Shown here one piece after another: positions 13,001-55,914 of a stretch of 64,000 nt of DNA. Source of the stretch: Cycas panzhihuaensis (taxonomy: Eukaryota; Plantae; Cycadophyta). Each line of letters starts with the position of its first letter. The stretch's first letter is position 1. The notes under the pieces were generated by a model. That model was not told the origin of the DNA, did not search any database, and saw only the letters and a program-made list of their open reading frames with translations. The translations under genes and the position numbers were made by a program. The stretch lies in contig CM041465.1 of NCBI GenBank assembly GCA_023213395.1, positions 78,747,741 through 78,811,740 of the forward strand. Direction: 5' to 3'.

Positions 13001-16000
13001 CTCCATCAGGGAGGTATGTAATGAATTGAATACATTGGGTAGTCCTACTTCTAGATATGAGCTTGTAACTACAATTTTCAAAGCATTGCCTAAGGACTAT
13101 AATGGATTTATTCCATCCACTACACGAGATGGTTCACTTAAAAGAATGTCTTTTAATGAACTTGAAAGCTTGTTGCTTCAAGAGGAGCAAATTTACATTA
13201 AGGATGATGATGACAAACCATCCACTTTAGGGGCATTCACGGCTGAATCAAAAGCCAAGCAAAATCCCAAACCTACACTTTCAAAGTTGTTTGGGAACAT
13301 GAACATTGGTTCCTCAAAGACCAATGTTATCTGTCATTGTTATGGCAAAGTGGGCCACATAACTCCTAATTGTAGGAAGAAACAAGTAGATCTCTAGCAC
13401 ACACGACAGCAGTAGCAGCAGCCATGTCAGCAGCATCAGAGACAGCAACAACCACGACAGCAATTCCAGCAGCAATGGTTTCAATAACAACAATAGCAAC
13501 AACCCCCTCCACCAAATCGAGGTGCCTATCAAGGAGGTCAAAGAGGAAGGGGGGGTTTCAGAAGTGGCAATCAACACCACTTTAATCAGTTTGGAAATAA
13601 GGATAAATTGTTTTGTGCCTATCATACATCCAAGGTTGATCAAAATTGGATCATTGACTCAGGGGCTATTCAACACATGACTAGGAGTGAAGAACTCCTT
13701 TGCGACATCAAGGAAGGAAAAGGTCAATCAGTGACCTTCGACAACAATGAATCTGTTAAGATCTCTAGCATAGGCACAATTGCCCCATTTCACTCTCCTT
13801 CCAATCCTTCCTCCACATTTCCCAATGGCAATGCCTATTTCATACCTTCCATGGAGAAGAGCTTGCTATTTGTTAGCAAATTGGACAAGCAACAGATGAG
13901 CATTTTGTTCAAGGATGGCAAATGTGTAATAAGTGACAAAAATGACCAGGTAGTAGCTGTTGGATATTGTGACAACAATATTTTGGGGCTAAAATTATGG
14001 CATGTTTTCGGCACGGTTTCCCCCCCTAATCTTTCTCGGGGGGTTCTAAGGGGGGTGAGAGCCCCCCTTGGCCGGGGGGTGCGGGGGGAATGGAACGCCC
14101 CCCGCTAAGAGGGGGTTCAGGGGCGATAGCCTCCGACCCAAAAAATTAGCCCTATAAACCATATTAAAATGTAAAGAGAATCAAGGTCGTTCGATACAAA
14201 TACCCTAGATTATACGGTTGAGATTCATGCCTTGGATGTCCCTCTCATGTAGCCCGTTTTAGGGCTTTTCTTATTATGTTGTAATGTAATGTTATGTACT
14301 TTGATGAGGGCGGCGGCTAGTTGTTGTTCCTGAGAGCACTCTGCTACTGAGATGTATTGTTTCTCCATTCTAAAGCAACAAAGATTGATACCTTTCCTAT
14401 GTGGATGTTTCCCTAGCACACTACTAGGGTTTTACCACGTTATATGGGGTGCATATGTGATGTTTAGCTTGTGTATTGATGTTATTGTATTATCTCTGTT
14501 TTTAGAACTTGCATGTTAAATCTTAGTTTCGATTCCTGTAACTAGTTGCAAAATAGTTCAAATCTTGTGGCGGTTTAAGGTTTGGGACCTTGTATTCTCA
14601 ACAGGGACATTTTGTAGTGGTTCAGGATGCATGACTACAAACTAGCGCCTACACCCATGGAGAATGGCACAAAGCTTACTCTCAATGAGGAAGCTGAATC
14701 GGCAGATTCCACTCTTTATCGGCAGTTGATTGAGAGCCTCATCTATCTCACCAACACTCGCCCTAATATCTTATTTGCAGTAGGGATTTGCTCCAGATAC
14801 ATGTCTCAACCTAATCAGAAGCATTGGAATGCAGCTAAATGCATACTCAAATACATCAAAGGCATATTGCAGCATGGCCTTGAGTATGCACATGATGAGA
14901 ACTTCACTCTGGAAGGGTTCTCAGATTCTGATTGGGCAGGTTGCCAGGATAGTAGGAGATCAACCTTAGGTTACTGTTTTACCCTTGGTTCAACAGTTGT
15001 TTCGTGGAGTTGCAAGAAGCAACCCAATGTTACCCCTGTCATCCACCGAAGCAAAGTACAAAGTCATAGCTGACTTGTGAAGCTATCTAGCTACGATGGA
15101 TTCTTGGGGAGCTTGGACTTGAACAGGATCACCCCACCAGGATTTATTGCGACAATAAAAGTGTGCTCAAGGTTGGCCAAGAATCCTGTCTTTCATGCAA
15201 GAAGCAAACATATTGAGGTTCATCATCACTTCATCAAAGAGCATGTGCAAAGCAGTGAAATCAACCTTCAATATAGACCGACAGAGCAGCAGACAACATA
15301 TATCTTTACTAAACCACTTGGTAGAGAAAAATTTGTAAAATTTAGAGATGGTCTAAGGGTCCGACTTAACATTGTAAACAGTAAAGGGGGGTGTTAAACC
15401 TTATGTTTACATGTTAAGACTATGTACTTTATTTTTCATGTATTATATGTACTTTTGTACTTTAGGGGTGACTTATCACTTAAGTGATAAAGTGCACACC
15501 CACATTCTTTCCTAGTGACACAATATTGTCACTAAAGGGTCAAATGGACCCCATGCACTTTTGCTCACTTGAGAGCCCAAAAAGACACGTCTTACATGCA
15601 AGGTATGTACCTTGGAAACTTGAGGAGTAGGAGGGACAGAGAAAGGCGGGAGAATGGATCTGCGTTCGTTAAGACTTTTTTCCAATTCAGCGATGTTTAA
15701 CACTTATCAAACATCCAATGCCTTAAGTCTCTCCTTTCACTCTATATATTGAGACCTCTTCTCATTGTTCTTATATAGAGTAGGAGTTGTATTGTTATAC
15801 TACCAGTTTGCTAATCAAACTGCTATTCATTTGGAGGTTGGACCAATTCCAACTCCTCACATTTGGTATCATTTTTCTCTTTCTCTTTATGCCTTGATTT
15901 TGCTTATGTTGATCTCAGACTTTCATTGTTAGTCTAGATTATTTTCTTTCTAGAACTAGAGTGAATATATCTCCTAGATCTTGGGTTTCAAAGGCCTTTT

Positions 16001-22000: not shown

Positions 22001-24409
22001 AAGTCACTGTCTTGGAAAAAACTACAATGAGAAGTCAAAAACACTTTGGTCAAGGGTATAATATTTGGAACACATGATACGACCATTCACTAGCTTGTAC
22101 ATCAATGAGAAAACAAGTTGGAACATATTATACCAAGCAAGAACAACCTCAAGAAACCACTATGTTACCAAAATTAAAGAGTTTATTTTGTTACTAGCAT
22201 TCATAAAACACAACAAACATTGACCAAACTACAATGGTTGCAAAGTTTGACATGGATAAAGAACATAGGCTGCACAAAAAACAAGGAAATTCCCTTGCAT
22301 TCCCCCAAATACAAGAGATGATGCCACTAAAATAAGAATCGACCTTACAATAATCAAGGAAATATGGTGTGTAGATTATATGTTGATAACACATCCCAAA
22401 GAATTAGGTCTAGGAAGACACTAAGATAAGGATTATTGATTGTGAATGTGTTGCGGACCTTGTCCTAGCAAAAAAAGGAAAACAGGGACTAACTTCATAC
22501 AGTTTTGGTTGATTTAATCAAAACCTAGATTTCATTATTGATAAACCAAGTTTTGGCTAACTTCTATTAACCAAATTTGGCCAAATTTTAACTAGTTTTG
22601 GACAACTTCTATTAGCTGGTTTTGGGTGTAGATACCACTTCTTTTGGTCAAATTCACTTAACCCCAATAACCACCCACTACATATAGAGGTTTACCTAAG
22701 ACATTTGGGCATTACAGGTCTTAGAATCTTGGTGGAGCTTGCCCTTTCAAGGAGCAAGTCCAACTTATCTTGGCTTCTAATTTTGGATTTCAAATTTGTG
22801 ATTTTCTATTATCACTTTATGTAAACATTGATTGTAATTAATTCAGTTCTCCGCCTATTTTTAAGTAGTACTTCTTTTATTATACTTTCCCTTTAAAGAT
22901 ATTTATTTTATGTTGAAGAACTCTTTCTTTCACAAGTGGAATTGCATTGTGTCCAAATTTCCTTAAAACAAAGGATAATTTGTAGGAATCCCTAGCCCTA
23001 GGGTCACTACAAATGGTATCAAATTCAATTTTCAATTGATCATGGAACTTTGCTCAGGATCCAAGAAACCAGACTCCTTCAAGCAACTAAAAAAGAGGGA
23101 AAAATGGTGTCCAAATTTGATGAAATTAGAATGGTTTGCTAAGATTTGGATAGATATATAGAATATAATAACCAAATATTTGAGAAATATCTGAAGGAAA
23201 CAATTGAAAGATTCAATGCTATATTGGCAAGTACTAGAAAATTGGCCATAGAACTCAAGATGCATGTAGGTTATGAAAAAATAAGGACAAAAGACACCAA
23301 TATGAGGCATCAAAACAATGAACAAATAGAAAACACTGAAAAGGACTATAGGAAAAATGAAGATCACCAACAATCGATCTTTGGCCACAACATTAAAATC
23401 CATAAATACTCCCTCAAAGGTGACAAACTCTGATGAATGGTTGGCCAAAATCAACAACTCCTTCAAAACTCTCTATATTTATAATACCCATAATAGATCA
23501 ACTTTGCTATAGAACACTTAACTGGAACTATGGAGAAGAGAAAACAAGAAAGTAGTGCAATTCTCCAAGTTCATCAAAGCATTTAGTGAATGCATGGAAG
23601 AAAGATGGAATGACCCATACAAAGTCTAGCTAACACATCGTTATCAATAAGGCAGAATAGTCAAATAATTCATTGAAGAATTTGAAAAATTATAGCTCAA
23701 AGCAAGAACTAGTTCAAAGGATGCCCTTCCATATTACATCAATAACCTACAACCTAAAATTTCTGAGGATATTTGTCGATTTAGACAAAGTACACCGGAT
23801 GAAGCTATTTAGGTAGCATGACAAACAAAAGCAAAAATTCTACTCACATAGCAAAGATGGTTCCAATCTAACACCCAAACACTTCAAAGGCTAGACTTCA
23901 AACCATCAAGACCAACCACTCAAGGATTTCCAACAAGAAACACAATCCAAACTAATCAATTGGAAGAATCAAATACCACACAACAGACTCGTGATATTAA
24001 AAGAGCAAAAGAGAAGGCCCTTGGCCTTTGCCATGCTTGTAAGAGACCATGGAGAAAAGGACACACTTACACTAAAAAAAAGTTTTACTTTGTATAAATA
24101 GAAGATGATGACAACAATGAACCCCAAGAAAAAATTGAATTAATAGATGAAGAACTGTGGAAAATGGGCATTAGGCCACATTAGTCCCAAGATCATAAGT
24201 ACAGGCACAATACTACAAATGCATGAAAGCATGAAGGCATAAAGAGCACAAAGAGAAATAGGAGCAAGAGAAAATGATACCCAATATGTGGAGTTGGAAT
24301 TTGTCCAACCTCCCAAGAAGAAACAGTTTGATTAGCAAACTGATAGCATAACAATACAACTCCAACTCTCCTTTTTAGACAATGAGGAGAGGTCTCATTA
24401 TATAGAGTG

Positions 24410-24545
24410 AAATGAGGGACCTAAGGCCTTGGATGTTTGACAAGTGTCAAACATCCAAGATACATGACTTGGATCATTAAAATGAGAGACCTAAGGCCTT
24501 GGATGTTTGGCAAGTGTCAAACATCCAAGATACATGACTTGGATC
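24410..24545. repeat. Tandem duplication (70-bp period) inside the C LTR, each unit containing a 15-bp-stem hairpin
   Basis: aaatgag(g/a)gacctaaggccttggatgtttg(a/g)caagtgtcaaacatccaagatacatgacttggatc occurs twice; the B 3' LTR has the corresponding segment once. Confidence 0.9.
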
Positions 24546-27500
24546 CTCAAAAAGTGCATGAGGGTCCATTTGACCCTTTAGTGACAACGTTGTGTCACTA
24601 GAAAGAATGTGGGTGTGCACTTTATCACTTAAGTGATAAGTCACCCCTAAAGTAAAAGTGCATATATTACATGAAAAATAAAAGTACATTAACTTAACAT
24701 TTAAACATAAGGTTTAACACCCCCTCTTACTGTTTATAATGTTAAGTCGGACACCAAGACCATCTCTAAATTTTACAAATTTGTCTCTACCAAGTGGCTT
24801 GGTAAAGATATCTGCCGTCTGTTGCTTGGTCGATATTGAAGTGTGATCTCACCATTGTGTACATGCTCCCTGATGAAATGGTGGTGAACTTCAATATGCT
24901 TGGTCTGTGCGTGGAGACCAGGAGTCGTAGTTAGCTTGAGGACACTGATTGTCACAACGAAGGTTGGTCATTTCTTGAAACCCAAGCTCATCAAGAATCC
25001 GTCGAAGCCAGATAGCCTCACAAGTCGCTACCGACTTTGTATTCTACTTCAGTGGAGGACAAGGTAACATTTGGTTGTTTCTTGCAACTCCATGAAACAA
25101 TTTCTTGAACCAAGGGTAAAACAAGAACGAGGTAGATTTCCTACTATCCTGGCATCCTGCCCAATCAGAATCAGAGAACCCCTCCAAAGTGAAGTTCTCG
25201 TTATGTACATACTCAAGTCCAAGCTGCAATGTTCCTTTGATATACTTCAGTATGCGTTTTCACCAATGCTTCCGATTGGGTTGAGACATGAAGCGAGAGC
25301 AAATCCCAAGCGCAAATGAAATGTCGGGCGAGTGTTGGTGAGATATATCAAGCTACCAATCAACTGCCGATAGAGAGTGGGATCTGTGGTTCGACTTCCT
25401 CATTAAGAGAAAGCTTGGTGTTCTCCATGGGTGTAGGCGCCGTCTTGCGATCGTGCATCACGAATCTCTGCAAGATGTCCCAAGAATATTTTGCTTGGGA
25501 AATGAAGATATAGCCTCGGTCACGCCATACCTCAAAGCCTAGAAAGTAATGGAGAAGTCCAAGATCAGGTCATCTCAAAACTTCTCTTCAAATCATCTTG
25601 GAGAACATTGATGAGCTTAGTGTCGTCACCGTGATCACTAAGTCATCTACACACAAGGCAATATAGGTGACACGGCGGTGCTCACGTTTGATGTACAAGT
25701 TTGGACCAGATGTGGATCGATGAAACCCATGTCTCAAAAAGTATTCATCGATTTTTGCGTACCATGCCCTAGGAGCTTGCTTCAAGCCATACAAAGCCTT
25801 CTTGAGGCGACATACCAAATGCTCCTTGCCTTGTTCCTTGTAACTAGGAGGTTGCTCCAAGTATACCTCCTCTTGAAGATCGCCGTTGAGGAAGGCGCTC
25901 TTCATGTCCATCGATATCTGACCCATTTGCATTGTGCGGCTAAGGCCAAGAGAAGTCGATGGTGTTCATGTTTGCTGGTGCAAAGGTCTCCTCGTAATCA
26001 ATTCCTTCTTTTTGTTTAAACCCCTTTGCTACAAGTCTAGCTTTCTGTCGCTTGAGTGTCCCATCAGAATGGAATTTGGTCTTGTAGACCCATTTACAAC
26101 TGATTGCTTGTTTGTGTGGAGGCAATTCGACCAAGTCCCAAGTACCATTCTTGTGAATGGATTGAATCTCCTCATCCATGGCAACTTTCCAACTATCACT
26201 TTGTGAAGCCTCTGAAAAGGTAGTAGGCTCATCAATAGAAAGCACTTCAGCCATAAGTGCAAAGTTTGTATCTTCGATACTTTGATGGACGCTTTCCGCA
26301 ATGATATGACCATCCTGCACTGCTTGAGTGTACCACTTAGGTAACTTCAAATGATGTCGCATGAACCTCAATATCTTACGGTCTAAGTGTATGAGTAGCG
26401 TAAGATGAAATGGAAGGTTCAAGTGGAGCGAGATGAAGGCAGTAGATGGTACGAGAAGGTGCAAATGAAGAACATGGTGTGTAAGATTGAGGGAAGGAAG
26501 TCCTCAACAATCTTTTTCCCTTTGTCAATGGGGGTTGGATTGATGCTATATCCAACTCTTTTGATCATCCTCAACAAAGATTACATCTCTTGAGAGATGC
26601 ATTTTTCTCCCAAATTTGGATCATACAACTTGTAGGCTTTGCTATGGATTGCATATCCTACAAAGATGCATTTAAGGCTATGTTTGTCCAACTTTGTTCT
26701 TTGTTGATCCGGTATGTGCATATCGCGATGCACCCGAATGTCCTCAAATGGTGATAGTTGGCTTCTTTCCGGACCATGCCTCCTCGGGTGTGATATTGGT
26801 GGCTTTGTTGTAGGACTTGATTGGCCACATAGGCATTTGTATGAAATGCTTGACCCGAAGAAGCTCTTGGAAGCCCTTTTGCATGCATCATTGTTTTGGC
26901 TTTATTAGCCAAAGTTCTATTCATCCTCTCGGAGACTCCATTTTGCTGACGAGTATGAGGAGCTGTGAGTTGTCTCCTAATTCCATTATCTTTGCAAAAT
27001 TGGTTGAATTCATTTGAAGTGAGTTCACCTCCATTATCTGACCTTAATGTGCCAATTGAGTAGCCAGATTCATTTTCTACTTCCGCCTTGAACTCTTTGA
27101 ACTTGGAGAAGGCTTCTGATTTTTGCTTTAGGAAGTAGACCCAGACTTTGTGAGAGAAGTCATCAATAAAAGATATGTAGTACAATGCTCCTCCAAAGGA
27201 TTGGGTGGACATGGGTCCACACAAGTCTCAGTGAACTAGTTGCAAAGGATAAGATGCACGCCATGCTTTGCCTTTAGGAAAAGGCAGCCGATGTTGTGTC
27301 CCCATTATGCAAGCTTCAAAAAGACATTTTGAACCATACATCTTTGGAAGCCCATACACCATGCTTTTGTTTATCATCTCGCTTGATTGTCTAGGCTTAA
27401 ATGTCCTAGACGTTGATGCCATAATCGAATTTTGACAAAGATGTGGAACCAGAGTAAGCGTAATCAAGAGTAATATTATTGGCATCCAACTTGTAAAGAC

Positions 27501-28021
27501 CTTGATCCTCGTGAGGCTACTGACTACGATCCGATCATCTTTGTCACAAATGATACATTTCCCATTTTAAATAGTACGCTCATGTATTGCTTGTTCATCG
27601 CTAGAGATAGCGATTCTTCTCCATAGAAGGAATGAAGTAGGCATCCTTTGTTGGGAAATGATGAGGAAGGATTTTGAGGAGAATTAAAAGGAGCTATGGT
27701 GCCTATTCACGAAATCTCAAGCGATTCACATTTCTAAAGGTCACCGATTGACCTTTACCTTCCTTGATGTTGCATAGGAGTTCTTCACTCCACATCATAT
27801 GTCGAAGCTCTGAATCGACAATCCAAGTGTTGTCAATGTTGCATGATTGGTATGCACAAAGTAGTTTGTCTTCATTGACAAACTGATTATAATGGCGTTG
27901 GTAGCCACCTTTTTGACCCCCCCCTCCTGTTGGACCTCCTCGATAGGCACCTCGATTTGGTCGAGGGGGATTCTGCTGCTGATCTGACTGTTGGAACCTT
28001 TGTTGAAATTGATGTCGTGGG

Positions 28022-28862
28022 TCATTGTTGTCTTTGACCACGTGGTATTCTTTGTCTTTGACCACTAGGCCGCTGCTGTCTTCGAAGATCTTCTTGCTTC
28101 TTTTTGCACTCAGGTGCAACGTGGCCAGGTTTGCCACAATAATGGCATGCTACATTGGACTTGGAAGATCCAATGTTCATATTTCCAAACTGTTTTGTGA
28201 ATGGAGTTTTGGATTTTTGATTTGGGTTTGGGTTTGGTGTGAAAGGAGGTGTTGTAGATGGTTGTTGATTATGGTTAGGATAAATTTGTTGTTGTTGAAG
28301 GAATAAGGTTTGAAGTTGATTGAATGTGATCCCTCTTAGTGAACCATCTCGTGTAGTTGATGATATAAAGCCGTTGTAGTCCTTTGGGAATGCTTTTGTG
28401 ATGGAGGCTATGATTTCATCTCTAGTAGCTGGACTACCTAAAGTAGTTAATTCATTACAAACCTCCTTAATAGAGGACATGAATGCCGACATTGGCTTTA
28501 CAAATTTGATGGAGTACAATTTAGCTTTTATCATCAAAATGCGAGCTTCATCTCGCCTTTCATACAAAGAGGACAAGGTGTCCCATGCTTCTTTAGAAGA
28601 TAGTGCAGAAGAAATATTTTGGTCTACATGTATGTCCACAACCATACGAATGAAAGCCAAAGCAATTTCGTCTTTGGCCTCCCATGCAGCAACAACATCC
28701 ACCGGTGCAGTTTGATTATTATTAACCACAAGTGTAGGATTGGGGATTCTTCCAGAAACATATCCCCAAAACTCATTCATTATCAAGAGATTTTTTGTGA
28801 TTCTTTTCCATTCTTGATAATTTGATTGCCCCGTTAGCCTTATGGTACAAGCATTAAGCATA
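28022..28862 (-). CDS. Copia gag of element C (open frame, contains the G-to-C tract)
   Basis: ORF track 28022..28891. Homologous throughout to B gag. The first ~10 codons of the ORF call come from LTR remnants. Confidence 0.85.
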
Positions 28863-31288
28863 TGTATGGGCATTAGGCCACATGATACCAAATGTGGTTG
28901 TGCAAGAATTAGATGTTGAACAACAAGAAGTATCGCTTGCAGCCATGTCAGGAATCCAAAGACTCAATACAATAAAAATTTTTACATTCCTAAGAAAAGA
29001 GGGTGATAGCACTCATCAACCCAAGTAGCACCCATAATTTCATTGACATACGAGTTGCCAAAAGAGCTGCACTATGAATAGAGAACACAAAAGATTTTAA
29101 GATTTCCATCCCAAGAGGGTAGTTAATAATGTGCAAAGGAGAAATAAAATACCAATGACTCTAGATCGATAACTACTTACTATGCATTTCCAATTGTTGG
29201 ATTTGACATAGTTTTGGGATTCAAAGGATTAATCACACTTAGAACATATACCCTAAACCACAACAAAAACTTCATCAGGTCTAGAATGGACAGACAAAGA
29301 TATCAGCTAGCGGGCATTAATGCACCAAAAAATTTTGTCACCTCCATAGAAAAAAATGAACAAAATACTCTGAAAAGGAAATGTTAGATTCATCGTCAGA
29401 TTATTTGCAATTCATTTAGAAGATACACGTGACCAAGTACCTCCAAACTAAAAACAAGTAGACCAAATCTTAGATAACTATCAAGGAGTATTCTAGGAAC
29501 AACCAAGATCTATACCACCCATAGGAAGTATGGAACATATAATCAAATCATAACTTAGAACAAGACCAATTATACATAGACCATATCAATACAAATATAA
29601 ACAAAAGATTGAAATAGAAAGACTCGCACAAGAATTTTTGGACATAGTAGTCACACCAAGTAAAAGTCCTCATGGAACACTAATAGTACTTGCACGTAAC
29701 AAGGATGGTTCATTCAGATTATGTGAAGATTATTACAGTCTAAACAAGGTAATGTTGAAGAATAAATATCCTATTTCCAATATGGATGATATCACAGATG
29801 AATTACACACGACAAAATACTTCACCAAGATCGACCTCTGCTTCGAATACTACCAAATCCCTATTAGACAACAAGATACAAAAAAAAAAAAAAAAAAAAC
29901 ATAACACATTAAGGGCTATACTAGTTAAAGTCATGACCTTCGAGTTAACCAATGCCCTGGCAACATTCCAAGCTAACATGAATCACATATTTGCCTCCTA
30001 TCTCAAGCTATTCATCATGGTATTTTTTGATGATATACTAATCTACACTAAAACATGGTAGGAATACTTATGTCACCTCCAGAAGGTCTTACAAATCTTG
30101 AGAGACACCTACTTTTTGTGAAAAGGTTGAAATGCTAGTTTGGGAGGTAGGCATTAGAATACCTTGGACACATTATATTAGAAAAAGAAATCCAAATAGA
30201 TCTAGGAAGGATTCAAGCAATACTAGATTGGCCCATTCTTAAAAATGTTTCCAAACTATGTGGATTCCTTGATCTCACATGATACTGCAAGAAATTTTCT
30301 GAAAGGATATGCTATGATCACAGGCCCATTAATAGATCTTACCAAAAAGTATACCTTCAAATGGAATGAAGAAGTGAATCAAACCTTCAAGAACCTCAAC
30401 ATAGCGGTCAACACCACCCCAGTCTTAGCTTTATTAGACTTCTCCCAAATATTCATAGTAGAATGTGATGCTTTAGGAATGGGGATTGATGCAATTTTAC
30501 TCCAAAATATCCATCCAATATCCAATGAGAACAATAAACTCAACCATTGGGAAAAGCCAAAAGCACCTATGATAAAGAAATGTTAACCATCCTTTATTTC
30601 CTAGCTAAATGGAGGCAATATTTGTTGGGAACAAAATTTATATTACACACAAGCTACCATAGCCTAAAATACTTCCTCTTACAACCTAACCTATCTAAAG
30701 AACAATAGAAATGGGTTGGCAAGATACAAGACTATAATTTTCAAATCTCCTATAAAAAGGAAAAAGAAAATGTAGTAGTAAATGCATTATCCCAAAAATA
30801 TGAAAAACCTAACTATTCAACAATAACCATCCCACAACTAATTGGTAACTACACAAAGAATATACCACAAACTCAACTACACAAGCCAAAATAGACCAAT
30901 GTATCAACAAAACGATGACACCATAATGGACTATGAAGGGAAACATCCTACCTTATAATAGAAGAATTTACTTGCCCCAAAATTCATACCTTGAAGAAAT
31001 CATACTCAAGGAACACCATCAAGCTCCGCTCATTGGTCACTTAGGATTTGCCAAAACATATAAAAGGACAAAAGCATCATTCTATTAGGAAGGAATGAAG
31101 ATAACGATAAGGAAATTCATTTTTGAATGTGACACTTACCAGAGACAAAAGGCATAAAATATAAAGAGCCATAGACTCTTGCAACCTCTTAATAGACTTG
31201 ACTAAAACTAGGAAAAAATATCAATGGAGTTTACCACAAGACTTCCCAAGTCAGAAGCAAAGGATGCTCTATTTATGGTTGTAGATCT

Positions 31289-33276
31289 ATCCTCCACCAT
31301 ATGAGGTTATTATGTTTATCCCACATGCATAAGTCTAAGAGATGGGTAGCCTTAATAGCCCATATATATGTATGTAATGTATAAGTTGGATCATGATGTA
31401 TTTTGTAATCTTATGTTAATTGAATGTTCTTTGGAACTTCATCTCTTTCTTTATCATTTATCTATCATTTTCTATTTCTATTTCTCTATGTTGAATGGTA
31501 ACAGGAATAGGTTCACTACAAGTGGTATCAGAGCGCCCAGGTTGAGAGAGGTGTTTTTGTTCGGTATTAAAGCAGTGATTTGGGAGGTGCCATAACATTG
31601 AAATTTCTGAAAAGTAATGGCGAAATTGAGACAAAATAGCTCGTTCTATAAAATTTGAGTGGTCGCACTACAGATTTTGGGGTGAAAGTGCGAAAATTGC
31701 AGCAAAATTAATTTCGGCCTGCGTTTTTTCCGTCGCCGTATTTTTGGGACAGATCTGCAACCTCAACTTCAAAGAGCCATAACTTTAGCTACAGGTATCC
31801 AAATGACCTCAAATTTTTTTTGATTCTGTGCGTTTTCAAATTTAATTTCCAATGGAAGTGGTTTGAGGTTGATCAGAATTCGGAGTGAAAAGTTATTAGC
31901 AGTTTATCAGAAGGTACTATTACAGTCTCTAGAAACCCTAATTGTGAAATTCTTAAAAGGGGCCATAACTTTTGATTGAGATGTCGGAATTGACTTTCGT
32001 ACGAACTGTTGGAATCGCGTTTCAGAGGCCATCATTTTCATCCATATTTCATGTATTTTTGAGCTATATTTTTTTTCAGAAATAAGTTTTTGGGAATTTA
32101 AGGATTTCATATTATACTTTTCTTAGTCATAAAGCCATTACTCTCGAGGCCCAATATATATTTTTGTAACAAAATTAGGGGATAACAGGCTATAGACACC
32201 CCTAATCTCTTCTATATCCATATTATCATGGATACAACAAGGCCTATACCGCGCATCTTTAATGCAGATGGGACTCTTTCTGTAAGTGATTGGATTGATG
32301 ATATAGAGGCATATTTAAAATCACTTGATGATGACTACATGAACAATAAAGAGATGACTAAAGTAGCATCATTGTATCTGCAAGGAGAAGCTTACCTTTG
32401 GTTTCAAGAGTGGTATAACACACATAATACATTTAATTCATTTTATTTCTAAAATTAGATATTCAGATTAAATACCATGCTTCTTGGTGGAAAAAATGCA
32501 AAATCTTGAGAAAGACAAACAAGAAGCACGGAAAATACTTGAGAAGTATAATCGTAGAATGGGACAAGGAATTCTCCCCACTCCACAAAGTCAAGAACAA
32601 AAGAAAGATGATGAGAAAGAAAAGAAATGTCAAGAGCAAGTAATGTTGTTTGCCACCCCATACCACCAGTGACACCTAAGGACAAGGGAGAAAAGACATC
32701 ACAAATAGTTAAAAGACAAACTAAAGTGGAACCATATCGGCATCCACATTATCAAGAGGCCCAACGCAACAAAACTTATCAAGCAAGGCACTCATCAACT
32801 ACAAACACCGTGCAAGCACATTATTCGAGTTTAAGGTTTCAACATTATAGATATCCGAGTATATCGAGGATGTTGTGGTGTATCAAAATCAACTTGGGAT
32901 GGATAGATCCCCATTCCATGCGCAACTTTTCTAACGACCTTCGCAGAGCTATCGATTGGATATTAATAATGTGAGATGGTCACATGCATCATTAAATCAA
33001 GATGCTTCGAGGGCGAAGCATTTTAGGGGGGAGGGCATGTTATGATCCTCCACCATATGAGGTTATTATGTTTATCCCACATGCATAAGTCTAAGAGATG
33101 GGTAGCCTTAATAGCCCATATATATGTATGTAATGTATAAGTTGGATCATGATGTATTTTGTAATCTTATGTTAATTGAATGTTCTTTGGAACTTCATCT
33201 CTTTCTTTATCATTTATCTATCATTTTCTATTTCTATTTCTCTATGTTGAATGGTAACAGGAATAGGTTCACTACA
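31289..33276 (+). mobile_element. Element E: ~2-kb non-autonomous LTR element (TRIM/TR-GAG-like), very recent
   Basis: LTRs 31289-31520 and 33038-33276 are identical over their shared 232 bp (the 5' copy lacks the first 7 nt, tgttatg). Perfect Met-tRNA PBS tggtatcagagc at 31523-31534; PPT aggggggaggg at 33025-33035; no pol. Confidence 0.95.
32228..32672 (+). pseudogene. Frameshifted Gypsy-type gag remnant in E
   Basis: DWIDDIEAYL...VASLYLQGEAYLWF resembles the retrotransposon gag capsid N-terminus; continues in another frame with GILPTP (32484-32672). Confidence 0.7.
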
Positions 33277-36200
33277 CAACTACACAAGCCAAAATAGACC
33301 AATGTATCAACAAAACGATGACACCATAATGGACTATGAAGGGAAACATCCTACCTTATAATAGAAGAATTTACTTGCCCCAAAATTCATACCTTGAAGA
33401 AATCATACTCAAGGAACACCATCAAGCTCCGCTCATTGGTCACTTAGGATTTGCCAAAACATATAAAAGGACAAAAGCATCATTCTATTAGGAAGGAATG
33501 AAGATAACCATAAGGAAATTCATTTTTGAATGTGACACTTACCAGAGACAAAAGGCATAAAATATAAAGAGCCATAGACTCTTGCAACCTCTTAATAGAC
33601 TTGACTAAAACTAGGAAAAAATATCAATGGAGTTTACCACAAGACTTCCCAAGTCAGAAGCAAAGGATGCTCTATTTATGGTTGTAGATCTATTAATAAA
33701 ACATGTCCATTTCATTCCCATACAAACTTCCTTCAAAGCACCCTAGATTGCAGAAGTATTCATGAAGAAGATTCATTGACTATAGAGATTTCCCAAGAAA
33801 ATAGTTAGTGATTTTGACCCAAAATTCACAAGCCATTTTTGGAATGATTTATTCAAACTTGCAGGCACCAAACTCACTATGAGTATAAACTAAGGTAGTC
33901 AATAAATGTCAAGAGACTTATTTAAGGTGCTACATAGGTGACAAGTAGTCTAAATGGGTAAGTTGGATCCACCTGGCAGACTATTGGCACAACACAAACT
34001 ACCATTCCACAATGAAGATGTAACCCTTTATAGCACCATGAATATCAACCACCATCACCTATAGACTAAATCTAGAGAACAATTAAAATCCTAGCATCAC
34101 AAAACTTGATCCTACAATCTAACAGAATTTGAAAAGAACTTAAATATAATTATGACATTGCCATTAACAAGATGAAACAATAGACTAATTTAAAATGAAT
34201 AGACAAACAATTTGAGGTGGGAGAATGGGTCTATGTGTGACTCCAACCATACAAACAAGAATCTCTCAGGCAAGCAAGTAAATACAAATTAGCGCCTTGC
34301 TTCTATGGTCCATACCAAATACAACAAAAAATACAAGTAGTAGCATATGCCTTGAACCTCGCACAAGGTAGTAGAATTCATAGACTTCTTCCATGTCTCC
34401 TGCCTTAAGAAAAAAGTAGAATTTCACATAGGACCAACAACAAAACTATTGGTAACTAATGAAGAAGGTAAACTAGTAGTTAAATTTAAAGTGATCTTAG
34501 ACATCCTCCAGAAAAAAACTTTGCTTTAAAGAAGTCATTAAATACCTATCAAGTGGAATAACCTTTTAGAGCAAGAAGCAACATGGGAAACATAACAGTT
34601 TGTCCAATAACATTTTTCTCTACCAATGCTTTGAGGGCAAAGTGTCTTTTGAGGGGTGGGACTTATTGTAGACCTTGTCCTAGCAAAAGAAAAAACACTG
34701 ACTTCATATAGTGTCGGTCGACCTAATCAAAACCTAAATTTCATTATTAATAAACCCAATTTTGGCCAACTTCTATTATAACTAGTTTTCGGCAAAGATA
34801 CCACTTATTTTGGATAACTTAACCTTAGTAATCACACACTATAGACATAGGTTTTCCCAAGAGATTTGGGCATTATAGGTTCTAGAATCTTGGTGGCCCT
34901 TTCAGGGAGCAGGTTCATCTTATCTTGGCTTTCATAATTGTTGTTTTCTATTATCACTTTACGTAAAGATTGATAGTGATTAATTCAATTTTCTAACCAT
35001 TTTTTAGGAGCATTTATTTCACTGTAATTTTCCTTTAAAGATATATATTTTTAGCTTGAAGAACTCTCTTTCATAAGTGGAATTGCATTATATCAAGATT
35101 GCCTTAAAACAAGGGATAATCTATAGGAAACCCTAGCCCTAGGGTCACTGTAGAATGCATCAATACAAGATTCTCAACATGTGCCGCATCAAATATTACT
35201 AGCTTTAGATGAAAGGAATGTGTGTTTATCCCTAGTTTAACAATATATACTTGCCCTAGAACAATCAAGAAACAAGTTCACGTAGTGAGAATGCAACAAG
35301 CTTTTCTTATTGTAGGGGTTAAAATCATACATAGTTTTAAAATAAATAACTACAACTTTGAGAAATATATAGCTAGTTTGAAGTTTGTTTAGTCCTATGG
35401 GATACATTGTACCTACAACAACTTCATACACATGTGGCCCACAATACACACACAAATGCCATACTCAGCATATTAACATGCCATTGCCAATACAACCCTC
35501 CATCAATTTCAAAAATCACCCAAAGGAACTGCTCTAAAGTCATAAACTTATTTATATGTTGTAGAAAATAACTACTAGGTGTTGCAGTAGTACCTCCTAA
35601 CTATTTTATCTACAAAGTAACCACCAATAGTTGCAATGGTGAGCACCAAATTCTCTAGTTTGCCTTTTGTTACTTTGCGAAGCTACAATAATTTCCAAAG
35701 CTCATGTATTATATGCAAAATTAGGCCTAACATCCTTATAACCTTCACAAAAAGGGGAGTGTCCCTATCTCGAACACAAAATTTATAAAAAGACATATAC
35801 ATTATCAAATTTACAACTTTTACACATTTTCCATTAAATTTTTTCCACTTACCCCTTCTCCCTTCATGCAACTCTCAACATCATAGTAGTTGCACCCTCA
35901 TGCAATGAATTTAGTATCACGGGATGGGCTTCCACATGTATGGACTACTTGTCACCTACCATTGTAATGTCCTACTGTGCTTCTATCCACTAGTTGTTCA
36001 TCCTTGCCTCAAAGATGGTTTCGTTGCGAACACCCTTGGAAGTACTTAGTTGTATTTCTCTGACACTAGTTTCTAAATTCCAACATGAAATCACATCGAG
36101 GTCATGCTCCTTATAAAATCTTATCTTAACCTTAATCTTCTGCAACACTGTAGATTTTTTACGTTAACTTCAATGTCTAATCCTCAAGTTCTCCTCGTAT

Positions 36201-36902: not shown

Positions 36903-39900
36903 TGTTGGAATAAGGAGTTTAACGAGTATCAATGCAATGTTTACTTAGTGGTCAAGTAGTCATTGGTCGATATGAAAGGTTCTCGCACACATGATCTTAT
37001 TGGTTAATGTAATAGTGAAATAACATTGGATGATGCTAAAGTGACACACTTATATTGTTGGAATATGTGATCTAATTATATATGTAATGTTTAATGTTAG
37101 GTGATGTGATACATGCGCAATCCCACCATTCACATACATTGAGATATGTGAGATGCACACATAGCCATGCAAAGATGTTATTTGATGATATAAAGGCTCA
37201 AGAGATATGATAGGCTACTCATGAGGTGAACATTATTAAAAATATGTACACACACCACTTGAAAACTTGAGAAAGGAGATGCATTTATTTTGATCATTAA
37301 GAGTAGTTCCAACTCCACCTTCTCCCGTGATTTTTCCCACACCAAGTTTTCCACGTATAAATCCGTTGTCTCTCTTGTGGTGCATGCTTTATGTGCTATT
37401 TACTTTACATTCATGTTGATTTTGTTATATGTGTACATAACTCATGAGTTTATTCTATCATTATATTTGCATCTTATAATTCGGTTGTGCTACTCTACAT
37501 TTCTAATATAGTATCAAAGTGCAATTATAAATTCTAACATGATATCAGAACCATGGTTAGTTCAAAGATCTTGTGAAACAAGAAGAAGCCTATCGAGCCA
37601 ATTTGATGAACCAATATGAACCAGTAACAAAGTAATGATAGAGCCAATACAAAAGCCAATTATGAGGTGAATTTGATGAGACAGAAGTTCGAATATGCTA
37701 GAATTATGCCAGTGACATGTGAACAAGATCCGGGGGCCAAATGAGATGAAGAAGATTGATGAAAAACCACATACAAAGATCAAACCAAACAAAGTTGCAT
37801 GACGATGAAACAACAAAATTGATGGTATGTTATTTAAATTTATGTGGAACAATCATTTATGCCTGTAGGCCTATATACTCGAGACATACAAGTGTTCAAA
37901 GAAAGTCCATAGAATGATACGAGATCAAACTGTTGCTAGTTGAGTTCATTTATGCAGACTGATCACCTACCAACATGACTGAGATTTTGTGAGACTGATC
38001 ATCTAACATAATCTCATAATTAGTAGTAGCCTAGATATATTGAAGTATGCAGACAAGCCAATGATTCCATTAGTACACAAAATAGGTAGCAGGCCTATAC
38101 AATGTGTTGAGCAGCAAACAAAATAGGTATTTTGACAGTAATGAATAAAGGTATGTGGAATTGATGTATATGAGGGCATGTGAATAAAAACTGTTGATTT
38201 GGTGGCATTTTTTGAAAAAGATTATGATAGCATTATGATATTATGTGGTACATATGTTAAATTATTAGGACGTCATTAATAATATTAGGGGCATATTGCA
38301 ATGTTGTTGATATTTTTTGATGAGGGTGTATTTATGAATGGTATTACGAGAGCATGATGAAGTGATGGCACCATTATTTAAGAGAACTATGCACGGTTAA
38401 AATTTGAGGGTTTGATATGTGGTCATGACATAAACAAGGGTATGAGCAACATTGCAACATCTCAATCCAATGACCAAACAAACATCAAAAGGAATTCCAA
38501 CATTGATCCATTCCAACAATATACAAGGATTGCAATACTTTGCGAATGAGATATAAAATTTTCCCCATAGTCAATTTGAATTATGAATACTAGGAGTATT
38601 ATGGTTTACAGTTCTAATTGTAGGAACTTTTTCAAAGGATAGTTTTAAAATAGGGAGTTCTGTTGGAGGGCAGCACTGACAGGGGAGATATGGGTGATCT
38701 GTCTTTCTGCTCTCACGCTCCATGCACATGCCAGAAGCATCCAACCATCCTTGAAGCACTGACGGAGAAGGAGATCTTGTCATGCATATAAAGCAAAGTT
38801 GTATAAACACAAAGCAATAGCCAGAGAAGGATATCCTATTAGCCACCAAATGAAGCACTCCATGCCAGTTAGAAGCTAATTGGAGACGCTGCCCAATAGA
38901 AGCCCTCAGTTCGCACTCGCCCTCAAGTTGTCTCCAACTAGCCAAAGAACAATGAAGAATAGTTTGGATATATGACTGTAAAAAGGTGAAATGCTATCAA
39001 CCAATGCCCGTAGAAGTAGATAACCCTGAGATGTTACAAATTGAAGCCACTGCTCGCCCTCTAAGGAAAATCATAGAATCACAAAAGAAATCCAAAGAAA
39101 TTTTTTGCATGGAAACACATCATTAATGTTACCTTGTTATATCTAAATTGTCTTGGCCAATTAGTTCGGCTTGTTCCCAAAGTTAGTTGTTTCTGAGATG
39201 ATTTTTTGATGATAAGCATGATTAATAGATTCCAAAGAAAGCTACTAAAGTGTGCAAGTGAGGAAGCACACAAAAATAAATCTTGTTCGCAAGAGGAAAG
39301 TATAAGTTTCATAAGCTACTTTTGCACAACACACTTGATTGTGTTCTAACTCGTATCCAAGAGGCAAGATTATGCTACTCTTGTAACAAGCAATTTGAAA
39401 ATTACTAAAACATGTATCTGAAATAGTTACCTAGAGAATTGACGATTACAAAGACTAGTTACCCATGTATTTTAGTAGATGGTTATTGTTTTATATGGAC
39501 TCAGAAATTAATATGTTTGTTTGTTGATTTGATGATTGAGTTGATAGAATGTTGATGATAGCAGCTATATAGGTGAAGATATGAAGTTGTTCAGGAAGAC
39601 ACTTTATATATTGGTGATGTTGATGTTGGTGAATGAATGATGGTTCATATTTATAGGTTATTTGTTCATAGTTGGTCACTGATATACACAGATGACTACA
39701 TACAGGTTATTGATTATAGATACATAGATTAATGCTTACAGGAGACAAGTAGATGGATGATAGATTTACATATAGATGATGGACATTTATAGGTTATAAG
39801 CAATGAAATTGATACAGATACAAATACAACAAATACAGAATATAGGTTACAAGATCTAGCATACAGGTTGAAGACTGAGCGATGAACACTCTAAGACAAA

Positions 39901-42900
39901 AATTTGAAGACATTAAACATTAAAGGGGTATGTTGGAATATGTGATTTAATCATATATGTAATGTTTAATGTTAGGTGATGTGACACATGCACAATCCCA
40001 CTATTCACATACATTGAGATATGTGAGATGCACACATATCCATGCAAGGATGCTATCTGATAATGTAAATACTCGAGATACGATAAGCAACTCATGAAGT
40101 GAACATTATTATAAATATGTACACACACCACTTGATAACTTAAGAAAGGAGATGCATTTACTTTGATCATTAAGAGGAGTTCTAACTCCACCTTCTCACA
40201 TGGTTTTTCCCCCACTGAGTTTTCTACACAAAAATCTGATCTCTCTCTTGTGGTGCACGCTTGATGTGTCATTTACTTTACATTCATGTTGATTCCTTTA
40301 TATGTGTGCATAACTTATGAGTTTATTTTGTCGTTATACTTGCATCTTTTAATTCCATAGTTTTACTCTACATTTCTAATATGGTATTAGAGTGCAATTA
40401 TAAATTTTAACATATATAAGGGCAATGCGTATTGTAAGGAAGATTAGATTACATAGTCCTCCTTATGAGGGTAGATGACACACCATGAGGATTTTTTTAT
40501 TATCATTCTTTAATATGAGATCTCATATACATTTGGAGGTGGTTTTCCCATTCATGGGTTTTTCACATTGGATAGGGTGTCACATATGGTGCTTGTGTGA
40601 TTGACTCTTTGCCCTTATTCATTTATTTTGTTTATTATAGAAGTTGATTGATCATGCAATTGCATTTCCTATTGGCTTATTACATTACGTTGTTATCCTA
40701 TGCAATAAACTTTAACGTTGTATCCGACCTTCTACATAAATTACATCATAAATTTTAACATGGTATCAAAGCTCAAGTCAAAAGATCATGAAGCATAGGT
40801 GGAGATCTTGAGGAGATGTCGTATCAAAGTGGCATAGTAGAAGTAGAAAATAGGAGAAACAAGTAGAAGACCATGGTGCTGATCTTTTCCATCCGAGGAT
40901 GATCCATGCATGCGTTATGTGTGAGCCAGTAATTGGTTAGTATGAGCCAGTATAAGGAGCCCATATCAAGAGCCAATTTGATGAGCCAAAATCCAGATTA
41001 TGTTGATGACATGTAACTGCAATATAGGGGCATGATGAAGCGAAATGAAGAGATCTGCATGCAAAGCTAAAGAGAGACACATTCAAACTAGGAAGTAATA
41101 TTATTCATTTATTTATAATGGACATTTATTACGCATGCAACTAGCATATTCATGAAGTATACAAGTTTAGGAGGTACGTCCACAAGTTGAGATTGTCCAA
41201 GCAAGGTTGATCACCATGTAAAAGCAAGTTGCAAAGCTAGTACTCTGTGAGTTGAGTGAGAAATAAGCAACAAGTCTATACTAGGATTTGAAAGGAATTT
41301 TGACAGTAAGATGTACCAAGTAGTTGGCATCAATAAGAAATAACATGAGGTATGTTGAGTGCATTAAGTGTTGACAAGTATTTGAGATATTGAGGGTTAT
41401 GACAGGTTATTGGTTATTACATTGCCATATGAGAGTTTGATGTTTATTTTGTGAAGTTGGGATAACAACTTTGGTGGAAATGTAAGAAATTATCTCTATT
41501 ATGGATTACTTGGCCATCTATTTTTGTCATGGATTGTAGAGTTTATTTGTTATTGTATATTTCTTTATGAGTAATTAGGATCATTCAATGTTGTGCAATT
41601 TTATTTGATACCCTATTGCTTGTGCACCAAAGATGACATCATGGTCATGTGGGAGCATTGATGACCCTTGATCAATGAGAAGAGATCGTAAGATAGTTGT
41701 ACTAGGAGAGATAGATATTAAGGGCTATGAGATATTGTTTGCACATTGAGTAACACATTCACCATTGTAAATGGTCACTAAATTGATTTCAAGCTTGCAT
41801 GTTGATCAATAGAATCAATGGAAGATACTAAAAGGAGATTTATCACCGCCTGTGTGGAGATAACAAGTAGTAGAGATGGAAGAACAAAGCCAAGGCAAGT
41901 ATAGACAAATTCAATGCAACCAATAGATGCAATATCAATTCTAGTGGAAATTAATCAAAGTCTAAGAATAGGGACAATTGCCCATTCTACCCCCACATAG
42001 ATTGCCCAAAGCAATACTCTTGAAGAGATGTTGCAGTATGGAAAAGCAAAACATGGAAAGACAACCTTGATAATGATTCGCACACAACTAGCCATAAAAG
42101 AATTCACAGGAATTGTGGTGAGAAGCATAGAGAATGGTGTTGGTTGCCCACAGATAAAGTTTATCGATGCCTAATGTTTGCTCCACATATCATTACAAAG
42201 TTTGATGTGCTGCACAAGGTTGCCCATTAGCTCACGAGCAAACAATCTAAAGGAAATACTCGCCAATGGCACAAATCTAAAAGAAAACACTAAAAAATCC
42301 ACAAAAAGTCATTTGCCAAAATTTGGAAAAAAAGCTGTAGGTCAAATCGAAAGAGTAATTCACCAAGAACGCACCTCAAATGCATAGAAAGTCATCCAAG
42401 TCTAATCACACAGACCAAACCCTAACTAATGAATGTTATGTCATATTATTTTTTATAAAGTGGAATTCATATTTGACTAAATTGAATTCTATTTAGAAGT
42501 TTCTCCAAGCCCCATGGATGAAGTTAAATGGTCACATGGAGCTCAACCATGACCAAGTTTTACTTTGAAAAGGCATTTAACATCATTTTCTAACTTGACT
42601 TCATTTTTTGGAGGACATACTAATGATTTTTAGGGCATAACTTATGCATATGAGGTCAGAATCAAGTGTCGTCAATTGTGTTGGAAAGAGGATCCATAGA
42701 TGGAAGTGGTCATAAGGCATAGCTTGGAGACCACATGATGGACATTTTAATTGTTGAAGTTGAGTAAGTAGTTTTTGGCATGTTAAAAGGTGCATTTTTT
42801 AAGCAGTTTGAGACATGATTTGAAATTTTTAAAAGCTCTTGAGTGCATGGTGATGCAAATAGAAGTTTGATGATGATTTTTGACACTTGTTTGGTTGAAA

Positions 42901-44495
42901 ATTGATAAAAAGAGACATATTAAGGCTCATTTTACACATATTATGGCTTAATTTTAAGGTTTGAAGCATGTGAGAACCTATTTGATGATAGATGTAAGAT
43001 ACATTAGACAAATACATGTTGGACATGGTAATGAGATCCCCCTAATGCATTAAACACATTTGATATCATGACTAACCAACACTGTTCAAATGAAATTTGA
43101 CACAAAGATAAAGAAATCACCTAGTTTAATATATGATTTAATTGCATGAGGGACAAATCACCTAATTGTTTTAATTGAGTGATGAATAAAAGACACCACC
43201 TGATTGACAAGTTGTTTGAAAGATGTTGGTCGATAGCTGTTTGAAAAAAGGTTGTTGGTCGAAAGTTTGGTTGAGTTCATGTTTGAGTTTACCACCATGC
43301 CTCATATGTTTGATTGTTTGATGAAATTGAAAATAATGGTTGTGGGTTATCCATAAAACCAAGATCAACTGTTGTGGAGCCTAGTTGATATGTGTTCTTG
43401 GTTAGAAATCCAATAGCCACATATGACAAGAGGTGTGGAACACATTATGCATGTTACCTTGATGCAACGAACTTGATAGGCCAAGTGGTATGCCTTGTTC
43501 CTAGACTTAGTTGACTTGAAAAGTTCATTGATGTGAGATCAATTTCTAAAGAATGTTGCAAGGGTCACCTTTTGCAGAATCACTGATAGAGGCATCATGA
43601 GTTCTGCATATCGCATAAAACAAGAGGTGAGAGAATGTTTATAATCTACTCTTGTTACAACATGTTTGTCTAATCGAAGTATGTTATGTTTTCTTTATGA
43701 AGCTGATGAACCACATATAAGAAATACTTCCTAGTTAACTAGCGATTGCAACGGTCAGCTACACACGCATTTTGGTAGATGGTTGTTGTTTTATATGGAC
43801 ATTAGTTATTGGTTTGTTGATGAGGTTGTTTTGAAGCTTACAAGTGGAGGATATGAAGTTGTTGAGAAAAGACTTCATATATCATGATGAGTTGTGAGTT
43901 ATGTTTGTTTGATGGTGATTTATAATTGGTGATGCAATATGACAGACATAGATTTGATGATTGATATTTATAAGTGATACAAGTGATGTGAGATATATGA
44001 TGAGTAGGTGATCCATCATGAAAATGAAAATGAAGACATTTGAAAATTTTCACAAATTAAACAATAATGGGGACCGTTGGAATATTGAGTTTCATGAATA
44101 TCAATGTAATATTTAATTAATGGTTAAGTAGTCGCTGGTCAATATGAAAGATTCTCACACACATGATATTATTAGTTGATGTAATGGTAAAATAACATTG
44201 GATGATGAAGAGGTGACAACATGAGGATTGTTTAATTAACATTCTTTAATATGAGATTTCATATGCATTTGGAGTTGTTTTTTCCCATTCATGGGATTTC
44301 CACATTAAACATGGTGTCACATATAGTGTTTGCATGATTAATTCTTTGCACTTATTTATTTATTATGTTCATTAAATGTTGATTGAGCATGTGGTTACAT
44401 TTCCTACTACCTTATTACGTTATGTTATTATCCTATGCAATAAACTTTACCATGGCATCCCACCTTTTGCATAGGTCGTGTCATAAATTTTAACA
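36903..44495 (+). mobile_element. Element G: non-coding (LARD-like) LTR element; 5' LTR 36903-40760 (interrupted by F), 3' LTR 44075-44495, TSD ATGGA
   Basis: LTRs align; PBS tggtatcaaagc at 40761; TSD atgga at 36898-36902 and 44496-44500. No recognisable gag/pol in the ~3.3-kb interior. Confidence 0.88.
37056..40412 (+). mobile_element. Element F: non-coding LTR element related to G; LTRs 37056-37539 and 39931-40412, TSD TATAT
   Basis: tgttggaata...taaca LTR pair; degenerate PBS tgatatcagaacc; PPT aaagggg; TSD tatat at 37051-37055 and 40413-40417. Internal ends are homologous to G. Confidence 0.9.
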
Positions 44496-50520: not shown

Positions 50521-52266
50521 TTGGCACATGCACAATGTCATCACATGATCACATAGTAAGCAAATACAGGTAACAAAATGACACTGCACATGTACACCAG
50601 TTTGACAGGTGGAAAAACCTTTCTAGGGAAGAAAACCCACCTCCTAAAGTTGTAGTTTTATTAAGAAAATTTGAGAAACAGAAAACCATTTACATAATCC
50701 ACCTAACCACCAAACTAGCCTTGTAAAAGGCATTTAGACAGCCCTCCTAGATTCTCGGAACCATCTCCTTGAATCTAGGAGAAGAATTTATATTAAGAAA
50801 GGTTCGTTGAAATGCAGTTCCACATTTCAACCACCTTCCACATAAGATTAAATAATAAACACTAAAGTTAAGCATTATAATAACTTAAATACAAATTTAG
50901 ACATGTGACTTAAATATAAACTTTAAAAAGAACATAAAAGTTACATTACATTAATATTCCTAACATCCCCATTTAATGTAAACTTTTATGCTATAGAAAA
51001 AGAAGGTCTTCATCACGGTGATCCCCCTTTGATGGAGACGTCTTTTATCTGTAACAGATCTCAGAGATTTAGAAACTTTAATTCAGTTAAAGACTTCGTA
51101 AGTATGTCAGCAATCTGTAGATCTGTTGGACAATAAGACAAAGAAACAAGATTATCAGTAACTAAATTATGAATAAAATGCTGATGTAATTCAATATGTT
51201 TAGTCCTAGAATGTGAAACTGGATTTGTAGCTGTTGACTCAGGTGTTCCCACTGCACTTGTGGGAACAGTGCACTTGTCAAGGTTACACAGGCTATAGTC
51301 TAGTTACGATATGGTCAACATGGTTATTCACATACATTCCACAGATTATATCACAATAGTACACAGCAGCATACAAATCAACACATATTCAGCATTTCAT
51401 CCTTATAACACAGAGAATACACAGTTTTCCACATAACTCTTCTTTCCATTAAGCAACAAGTTCAATTACACAGAGGGCTGGAATGCATTCCTGTGCATTC
51501 CAGCAGCATACACTCTTCTGTTACATGCGTACCTAGGTGGTACTTATCAATAAACACTGTTTCAATCGGCTATCATACGTGCTGGCATCTGTACCATTGC
51601 GTACCCTGAATATTCGACTCTCGCCCTTTGAGAGTATACAATAGGATTGAATCACTCAGCTCTCACACTGGAATGGTCCTTGTGTGCTTCCTTAAATGTG
51701 CCTCTTCGCATTTTTGGTCAAGGGTTATGACCGCTCATCATAACCGCATTCTTGATCAAACGTATTTTTCATTAGTCATTGGTTATCCCATAACCAGTGC
51801 CTTAAGCATGTCCGACGTAAAATGCGACGTGCAGCGACTCCCCTAGGCTTCCACCGTCCTGCATCGTCATGCGCATCGCCTGCCTATTTACGTTACGCTG
51901 GTACGTATGCGTATTGCGCACTGCTCTGTGCACGCACCTATCATACGCACCCATAATGCTAGTTTTTCCACTGCCGCCTGTGTACCTCCGCACGGTCCTG
52001 CACTGCACATCTAGGGTTATCTAGCCTACCTTTGGTCTTCCAACAGCCATATGATCAATTTCTACCCCAACATCTATCCTGTGTCAATAAGATGGGTTTG
52101 AGCATCCTTGCTCAACAAAATTCCAAAAATTTTTCAAAATTTTGGGGTATTCCTCCCCGCCTCGCCTCAAGGCGCCTGCTGCCTCTGTCCTACTAGGATT
52201 TCTTCATTAATCTGTGTTAAGGTAGCAATGATAGCATCCTTTTCCTTAGTTTTATCTTGAAGGGCG

Positions 52267-53237: not shown

Positions 53238-53429
53238 TTTGGCTGTGGAATTCCAGAGATAGCTGAAAATAACCTAAGAGTGCAAATCGGAACCCTACGT
53301 ACGTACCTTTTGGGTATGCTTGCCGTTTTCTTGAAATTCTGTGCCGAGATGCATACTGGAGTCACTTTTTCGTCTTATAGGGTCGTACGATTGCTTGGTA
53401 GAAAATTTAGAGTCGATTCGTTCGTCGTC

Positions 53430-55863: not shown

Positions 55864-55914
55864 TTCTGTTTGCGGATTCGGATATACTCTGTTTTGTTTC
55901 TCCTTCTGTTTATT

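Follow-up and report, generated by a model that had tools for sequence, protein, structure and literature searches.

How does a young long terminal repeat (LTR) retrotransposon come to lie between two copies of a 417-bp stretch of its target, with one of its own ends clipped? The question is raised by a locus of the cycad Cycas panzhihuaensis, within a window of 64,000 nt (assembly GCA_023213395.1, CM041465.1:78,747,741-78,811,740) that contains no N letters. The element, here called E, sits in the integrase region of an older Ty3/gypsy element, D. We favour, with moderate confidence, an account in which a borrowed integrase joined only the 3′ end of E to the target, while host repair joined the 5′ end and thereby generated the duplication.

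An LTR element between two copies of its target

E has the hallmarks of an LTR retrotransposon, namely a direct pair of LTRs with TG...CA ends, a primer-binding site (PBS), which we take to be of the initiator-methionine tRNA type, and a polypurine tract (PPT) (Table 1). A preliminary description of this DNA had placed a 417-bp direct repeat of D, with one mismatch, around E, and its coordinates proved exact to the base. The two copies differ only at 31106 (G) and 33509 (C), their likeness stops at both repeat borders, and the window holds no third copy. The 5′ LTR does lack its first 7 nt (TGTTATG), as had been claimed, and is otherwise identical to the 3′ LTR, with 0 differences over 232 aligned positions. 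Two bases at the 5′ junction, AT at 31289-31290, can be read either as target or as LTR, giving a 2-nt overlap. The 3′ junction is exact at CA, with 0 nt of exact microhomology and without a 2-nt spacer, yet such a spacer is present between the 5′ LTR and the PBS.

This arrangement is a local exception. Of the six other LTR pairs examined, four have perfect 5-bp duplications, and the limits of the remaining two could not be set. In a survey of 12 plant genomes that counted only duplications of 4-6 bp, 5 bp made up 87% and 4 or 6 bp the rest (PMC6911290); E resembles such normal plant integrations in its TG...CA ends and its nesting, but its duplication is 417 bp rather than 4-6 bp. A canonical product of concerted integration, with a 4-6 bp duplication and intact termini, was therefore rejected, given the long duplication and the 7-nt clip.

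The six frames of the interior of E gave no significant Pfam family (no protease, reverse transcriptase (RT), RNase H or integrase). As it lacks pol domains, E is presumably non-autonomous and would need an integrase in trans. Its interior carries an open reading frame (ORF) of 74 codons at 32228-32452, the other frames being broken; we assume this ORF to be Gag-like from a familiar motif, which Pfam does not back. Searches of protein collections returned no homologue of similar or greater length for the ORF, and no Gypsy Gag or Pol similarity that would point to the lineage of an autonomous partner. Six matches were found among protein representatives: five were partial, to unrelated repeat-rich proteins, and the sixth was an unnamed 84-amino-acid relative (53%) with no significant Pfam family. 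The window contains no further copy of E, and a 20-nt motif of its LTR had no match in metagenome contigs.

Two named classes were considered for E and rejected. Terminal-repeat retrotransposons with a GAG domain (TR-GAG) carry one ORF for a full Gag, which is absent from E, where only the 74-codon ORF without a Gag family match is found. A strict TRIM (terminal-repeat retrotransposon in miniature) is limited to 1-1.5 kb (PMC13570524), whereas E would measure 1995 bp with both LTRs whole. The same source describes a continuum of long-TRIM and TR-GAG elements in plants, non-autonomous and within an undefined size range of 1.5-4 kb (PMC13570524); E falls in that range and is like these in its short LTRs, PBS, PPT, lack of pol and high copy number.

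Table 1 Features of the locus and of delimited neighbouring LTR elements (positions within the window).
Feature	Position	Strand	Remarks
D	22449-35152	+	Old, broken Ty3/gypsy element; LTRs ~73% alike; own 5-bp duplication GAATG
Left repeat copy	30874-31290	+	417 bp; D integrase region; derived G at 31106
E	31289-33276	+	Non-autonomous LTR element, ~2 kb
5′ LTR of E	31289-31520	+	Minus first 7 nt; 232/232 identical to 3′ LTR
Internal region of E	31521-33037	+	1517 bp; no pol domains
PBS of E	31523-31534	+	2 nt past LTR end; from sequence
PPT and 2-nt spacer of E	33025-33037	+	PPT at 33025-33035; from sequence
3′ LTR of E	33038-33276	+	Complete, 239 nt, TG...CA; joined at CA to repeat start
3′ junction look-alike	33268-33285	+	LTR end resembles target 30873-30881; 8/9, one gap
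Right repeat copy	33277-33693	+	417 bp; joins D right flank unbroken; ancestral C at 33509
LTR element	36903-44495		5-bp duplication ATGGA
LTR element	37056-40412		5-bp duplication TATAT
LTR element	51232-58708	-	5-bp duplication GTAGC

The site before insertion and the age of the event

The repeat encodes the zinc-binding domain of the D integrase and the start of its core (Integrase_H2C2, E-value 7e-13). The integrase frame is continuous over both borders, entering the repeat from the left flank and leaving it for the right flank, so D originally held one copy.

For comparison we used contigs from six sequencing runs (X1-X6, of 22 runs listed) placed on the locus. About half of each run was sampled, and holes in coverage carry no weight; the placed contigs are reported as listed pieces only, and statements about junctions hold among those pieces. 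Eleven hand-picked D pieces (at least 95 nt, at most ~2% difference, some overlapping) differed from the window at 15 of 2267 positions. Because of this divergence of about 0.7%, the runs probably represent individuals or species other than the source of the window.

An empty site with a single copy of the 417 bp, as envisaged in the preliminary description, is indicated in two of these runs. A contig of X3 covering 33476-33764 (289 of 289 letters aligned, one difference) leaves the repeat and enters the right flank of D without branching. A 281-nt contig of X1 has the same start, follows the repeat to its end and continues for 63 letters that are not LTR, X3 being the run in which continuation into the right flank is shown. 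A joint from repeat end to repeat start was seen in none of the seven listed joints, so an older tandem duplication in empty alleles, which had been raised as the alternative, is unsupported. These contigs make it likely that the X1 and X3 samples hold the empty site with one repeat copy, at a depth of ~5-6 and with no single contig covering the whole site. The runs X2, X4, X5 and X6 have no listed piece over the repeat end, and depth is 0 at 33630-33668 in X2, X5 and X6.

Both the X1 and the X3 contig carry C at the mismatched site, which makes the G at 31106 in the left copy the derived base. G was absent there from the pieces at least 93% alike in four runs, few of these pieces covering the site. 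X2 shows a depth of ~5.5 not counted as C at 31106, which is gone at 93% likeness and probably comes from a distant paralogue. Separately, X5 and X6 share a 438-nt contig that jumps from 33316 to 33722, skipping 405 bases that include most of the repeat and having 20 different letters in their place. Three of 53 positions differ in the part that aligns, and the contig is therefore probably from a D paralogue with a deletion.

The E family is very abundant, dispersed and multi-copy. Between 16,903 and 20,263 contigs per run were placed on the locus, and summed depth over E reached 10^4-10^5 against ~5-7 for single-copy D contigs, a figure that is not a copy number and is taken to mean only very many. 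In each of four runs only ~7-9% of placed contigs were at least 99% alike (1537 of 16903 in X1), and family copies in the runs mostly differ by 5-10%. Since the two LTRs of E are identical although so few contigs come this close, both likely derive from one reverse transcription. The CpG observed/expected ratio is 0.68 inside E against 0.07-0.23 in D, and this weaker depletion is in line with the youth of E.

Pooled, the LTR pair and the repeat pair differ at 1 of 649 positions (0.15%, 95% interval 0.004-0.86%). Taken singly, the upper 95% bounds on divergence are 1.6% for the LTRs (0/232) and 1.3% for the repeats (1/417). Substitution rates in plants range from 2x10^-9 to 1.3x10^-8 per site per year. 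With these rates, taken as general background, the insertion would be roughly 0.06-0.4 million years old, with an upper bound near 2 million. That insertion and duplication were contemporaneous, as first proposed, is compatible with the counts, and the two may be one event; the counts themselves only bound both under ~1.5% divergence.

Probable one-ended integration and its rivals

Aberrant one-ended integrations are described for avian sarcoma/leukosis virus (ASLV) with mutated ends, and for HIV-1 (human immunodeficiency virus type 1) under sub-optimal integrase inhibitors or with a weakened integrase (PMC5041404). In these cases integrase inserts one end and host enzymes insert the other, which is often truncated and usually joined with short homology. 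Host DNA on the aberrant side is most often duplicated, over hundreds to thousands of bp, and aberrant products made up 0/99 and 0/85 of unperturbed proviruses (PMC5041404). The model offered there has the free 3′ end prime on nearby target, a join downstream of the first cut giving a duplication. E is like the ASLV and HIV products in its one normal end, one truncated end and long duplication. Its geometry fits as well, since the truncated end is attached downstream of the normal one, where the model yields duplications. Anatomy and geometry support the likeness pointed out in the preliminary description. The viral cases were induced in cell culture, whereas E is natural, heritable, non-autonomous and in a plant.

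For E, one-ended integration would proceed as follows. Integrase would trim two terminal bases and insert the CA end between 30873 and 30874, while the other end would fail to insert 5 bp away. The free 5′ end, shortened by 7 nt, would prime on target DNA 417 bp downstream, or be attached there, at the 2-nt overlap, and repair synthesis would copy the interval back to the first cut. Unprocessed LTR complementary DNA (cDNA) carries a 2-nt spacer at its end; the exact CA, the missing spacer and the 0 nt of exact microhomology are what a processed 3′ end, joined by integrase, should show. The downstream join suggests that the left copy is the new one, and the derived base does lie in that copy, which is weak evidence from a single site. 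The 5′ damage falls within 9 nt of the terminus, for which the probability under random joining is ~0.005 in the element and 0.04 in the LTR, and damage so near the terminus ties the event to integration.

The structure of the locus, the single-copy ancestry of the repeat, the identity of the LTRs and the 5-bp duplications of the neighbours are established; the enzymes we infer, and the 5′ damage may have come before repair or during it. At the level of sequence, the locus appears to show every structural feature of an aberrant one-ended product that can be checked there. One earlier claim, that the cDNA end was defective beforehand, is not supported. The 7-nt clip may come from repair, as the search for a priming site can itself truncate the end, and a weakened integrase gives the same products from intact ends (PMC5041404); the clip thus need not pre-date integration.

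Several observations weigh against one-ended integration. Neither junction of E is spanned by a listed contig piece in any of the six runs, and both are known from the window alone. The AT overlap is present as described, but as evidence it is at chance level: 72% of D positions end in at least two bases that also occur close to the start of the LTR. Among fixed junctions, about 0.17 would be expected to show a 2-nt overlap by chance. More broadly, the LTR start is not significantly similar to the end of the repeat, as 7.9% of D positions score as well. The 3′ end, which had been called clean, is exact and free of the spacer but resembles the target at 8 of 9 positions, a likeness overlooked at first. 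The last 6 nt of the LTR recur 2 nt into the target, and a perfect 8-nt tandem repeat can be read across the junction as well. Only 0.46% of D positions have such a 6-nt suffix match within 12 nt, 25 of 3118 have a gapped match this good, and eight control junctions of four other elements show likeness of only 1-3 nt; the test was chosen post hoc, after the match had been noticed. Because of this look-alike, the sequence is no proof of integrase at the 3′ junction, and repair at both ends stays a rival. Nor can one locus tell one-ended integration from the collapse of a normally integrated junction.

The collapse of a normal junction is the rival that survives best, though we consider it unlikely. 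E would have integrated normally, with the 5-bp duplication CAACT, and the 5′ junction would then have broken, at once in the unrepaired gap or later. The left end would have copied 412 more bases before rejoining the LTR 7 nt in, taking as template a homologue without E, the sister chromatid, or a circle of E plus flank that had been excised. This yields the same final sequence and explains the exact 3′ end too; with a homologue as template, one would expect the copies to carry a mismatch, and chimeric circles of element and flank are known in Arabidopsis mutants (PMC10462705). However, breakage that had nothing to do with integration would need to land within those 9 nt of the terminus, and the G of the left copy was unseen in the few comparison pieces, described above, that cover its site, the non-C depth of X2 being probably that of a paralogue.

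Integrase-independent capture, which we regard as quite unlikely, would have patched E cDNA into a chromosome break with microhomology-guided joining at both ends. The 3′ end would anneal at the 6-nt look-alike, extend by 2 nt and re-prime to leave the 8-nt tandem, the 5′ end would join at AT, and the 417-bp duplication would stem either from breakage with staggered cuts or from copying during repair. In its favour, the end of the LTR resembles the insertion point, a match that few D positions and none of the control junctions equal. In Arabidopsis, the scars of polymerase-theta joining carry microhomology and templated insertions (PMC12153051), and both Tf1 and HIV can insert without integrase (PMC11042837). 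Yet the HIV cases in the latter source are mostly LTR-truncated and without target duplication, some arising through PBS homology, which is absent here. Near the 3′ junction the target is also A+C-rich, and the 6-mer recurs 28 nt upstream; capture needs an untrimmed CA end, re-priming and a 417-bp stagger all together.

An assembly artefact, either a chimeric read or a haplotype mis-join of empty and normal-insertion alleles, is very unlikely. The E family is highly repetitive, and independent sequence shows neither junction. Against an artefact, the join has only the 2-nt overlap and no N gap and lies within 9 nt of the LTR terminus, and a mis-join through LTR homology would not cut exactly 7 terminal nt. 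The runs that could have spanned the junctions are themselves ~0.7% off the window in D and about half sampled. Most improbable is a pseudo-duplication, from unequal recombination of two E insertions 417 bp apart on homologues or from insertion into an older tandem duplication: the family is abundant and a pseudo-TSD (target-site duplication) model has been put forward for HERV-K (PMC5488345), but the clip would stay unexplained, no end-to-start joint was listed, the X3 contig is unbranched, and identical LTRs in a family mostly 5-10% different make recombination between two insertions unlikely.

Neighbouring elements and the meaning of the locus

The other delimited LTR elements are given in Table 1. 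The element at 37056-40412 sits in the left LTR of that at 36903-44495, and both share terminal sequence. The element at 51232-58708 is of Gypsy type and has several long open frames with matches to Gag, zinc knuckle and protease and, close to where one LTR starts, a short internal duplication. Two Copia elements, at 10097-15861 and ~24260-28960, lie in opposite orientation ~9-15 kb apart and are 72-87% alike; the second is nested in D, and a PBS-like motif is found at 15864, past the right LTR of the first. In a further Copia element on the minus strand (59000-62800) the frames for Gag, integrase and RT are comparatively intact, and the protein collection offers nothing closely related to it, the best match reaching 44-46%. 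For one Copia protein of the window, the closest named relatives come from fern, pine and yew (38-46%), in line with a land-plant host but pointing to no genus.

A divergent tubulin exon lies at 8577-8420 on the minus strand, with AG/GT ends, an open frame and a match to Tubulin_C (E-value 2.8e-06). It has weak matches to alpha-tubulins, and a second exon-like stretch starts at ~8311. The exon resembles, we presume, epsilon-tubulin, which would suggest a plant with flagellate sperm and would place the nest of elements perhaps in or near a giant intron.

Long duplications at natural LTR insertions are already known. For HERV-K (HML-2), eight sites of more than 10 bp are listed among 451 putative duplications, a frequency of 1-2%; those of 111 and 250 bp are proven by empty alleles and one of 450 bp is inferred (PMC5488345). 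Like E, these are natural germ-line LTR insertions with long flanking duplications, but they are mostly solo LTRs or older proviruses, and the main text connects them neither with one-ended integration nor with a clipped terminus. At E the clip can be measured because both LTRs are present and identical.

A duplication of 9 bp has already been called unusually long (PMC10462705). Duplications were found at 60 of 63 resolved somatic insertions in a study that collected only those under 15 bp (10.1101/2025.02.07.637047). In sugar beet, 229 of 1581 full-length non-autonomous copies had no 5-bp duplication, a lack ascribed to age or recombination where only 5-bp motifs had been sought (PMC13570524). 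No plant LTR element with a duplication of the size seen here was found in the literature searched for plant and other natural LTR cases, most subscription papers lying outside it. The E locus is possibly an early, well-resolved plant example of one-ended integration.

Taken alone, the locus has no likely function: a piece of a dead retrotransposon was duplicated. Its value is that of a clean natural specimen, in which the clip is measurable and the reading frame of the target shows the ancestral state. Annotators that require duplications of 4-6 bp would drop or misfile such copies. It is an unlikely extension that one-ended insertion is routine for the E family, its borrowed integrase being poor at the 5′ end, and that such events hide among young elements without a TSD. 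If that were so, the genome would contain clipped E copies by the hundred, flanked by long duplications, and some of the young plant LTR elements that lack a TSD, a lack now blamed on recombination, would be aberrant integrations. In giant plant genomes, one-ended integration would then contribute local duplications from a source so far unrecognised.

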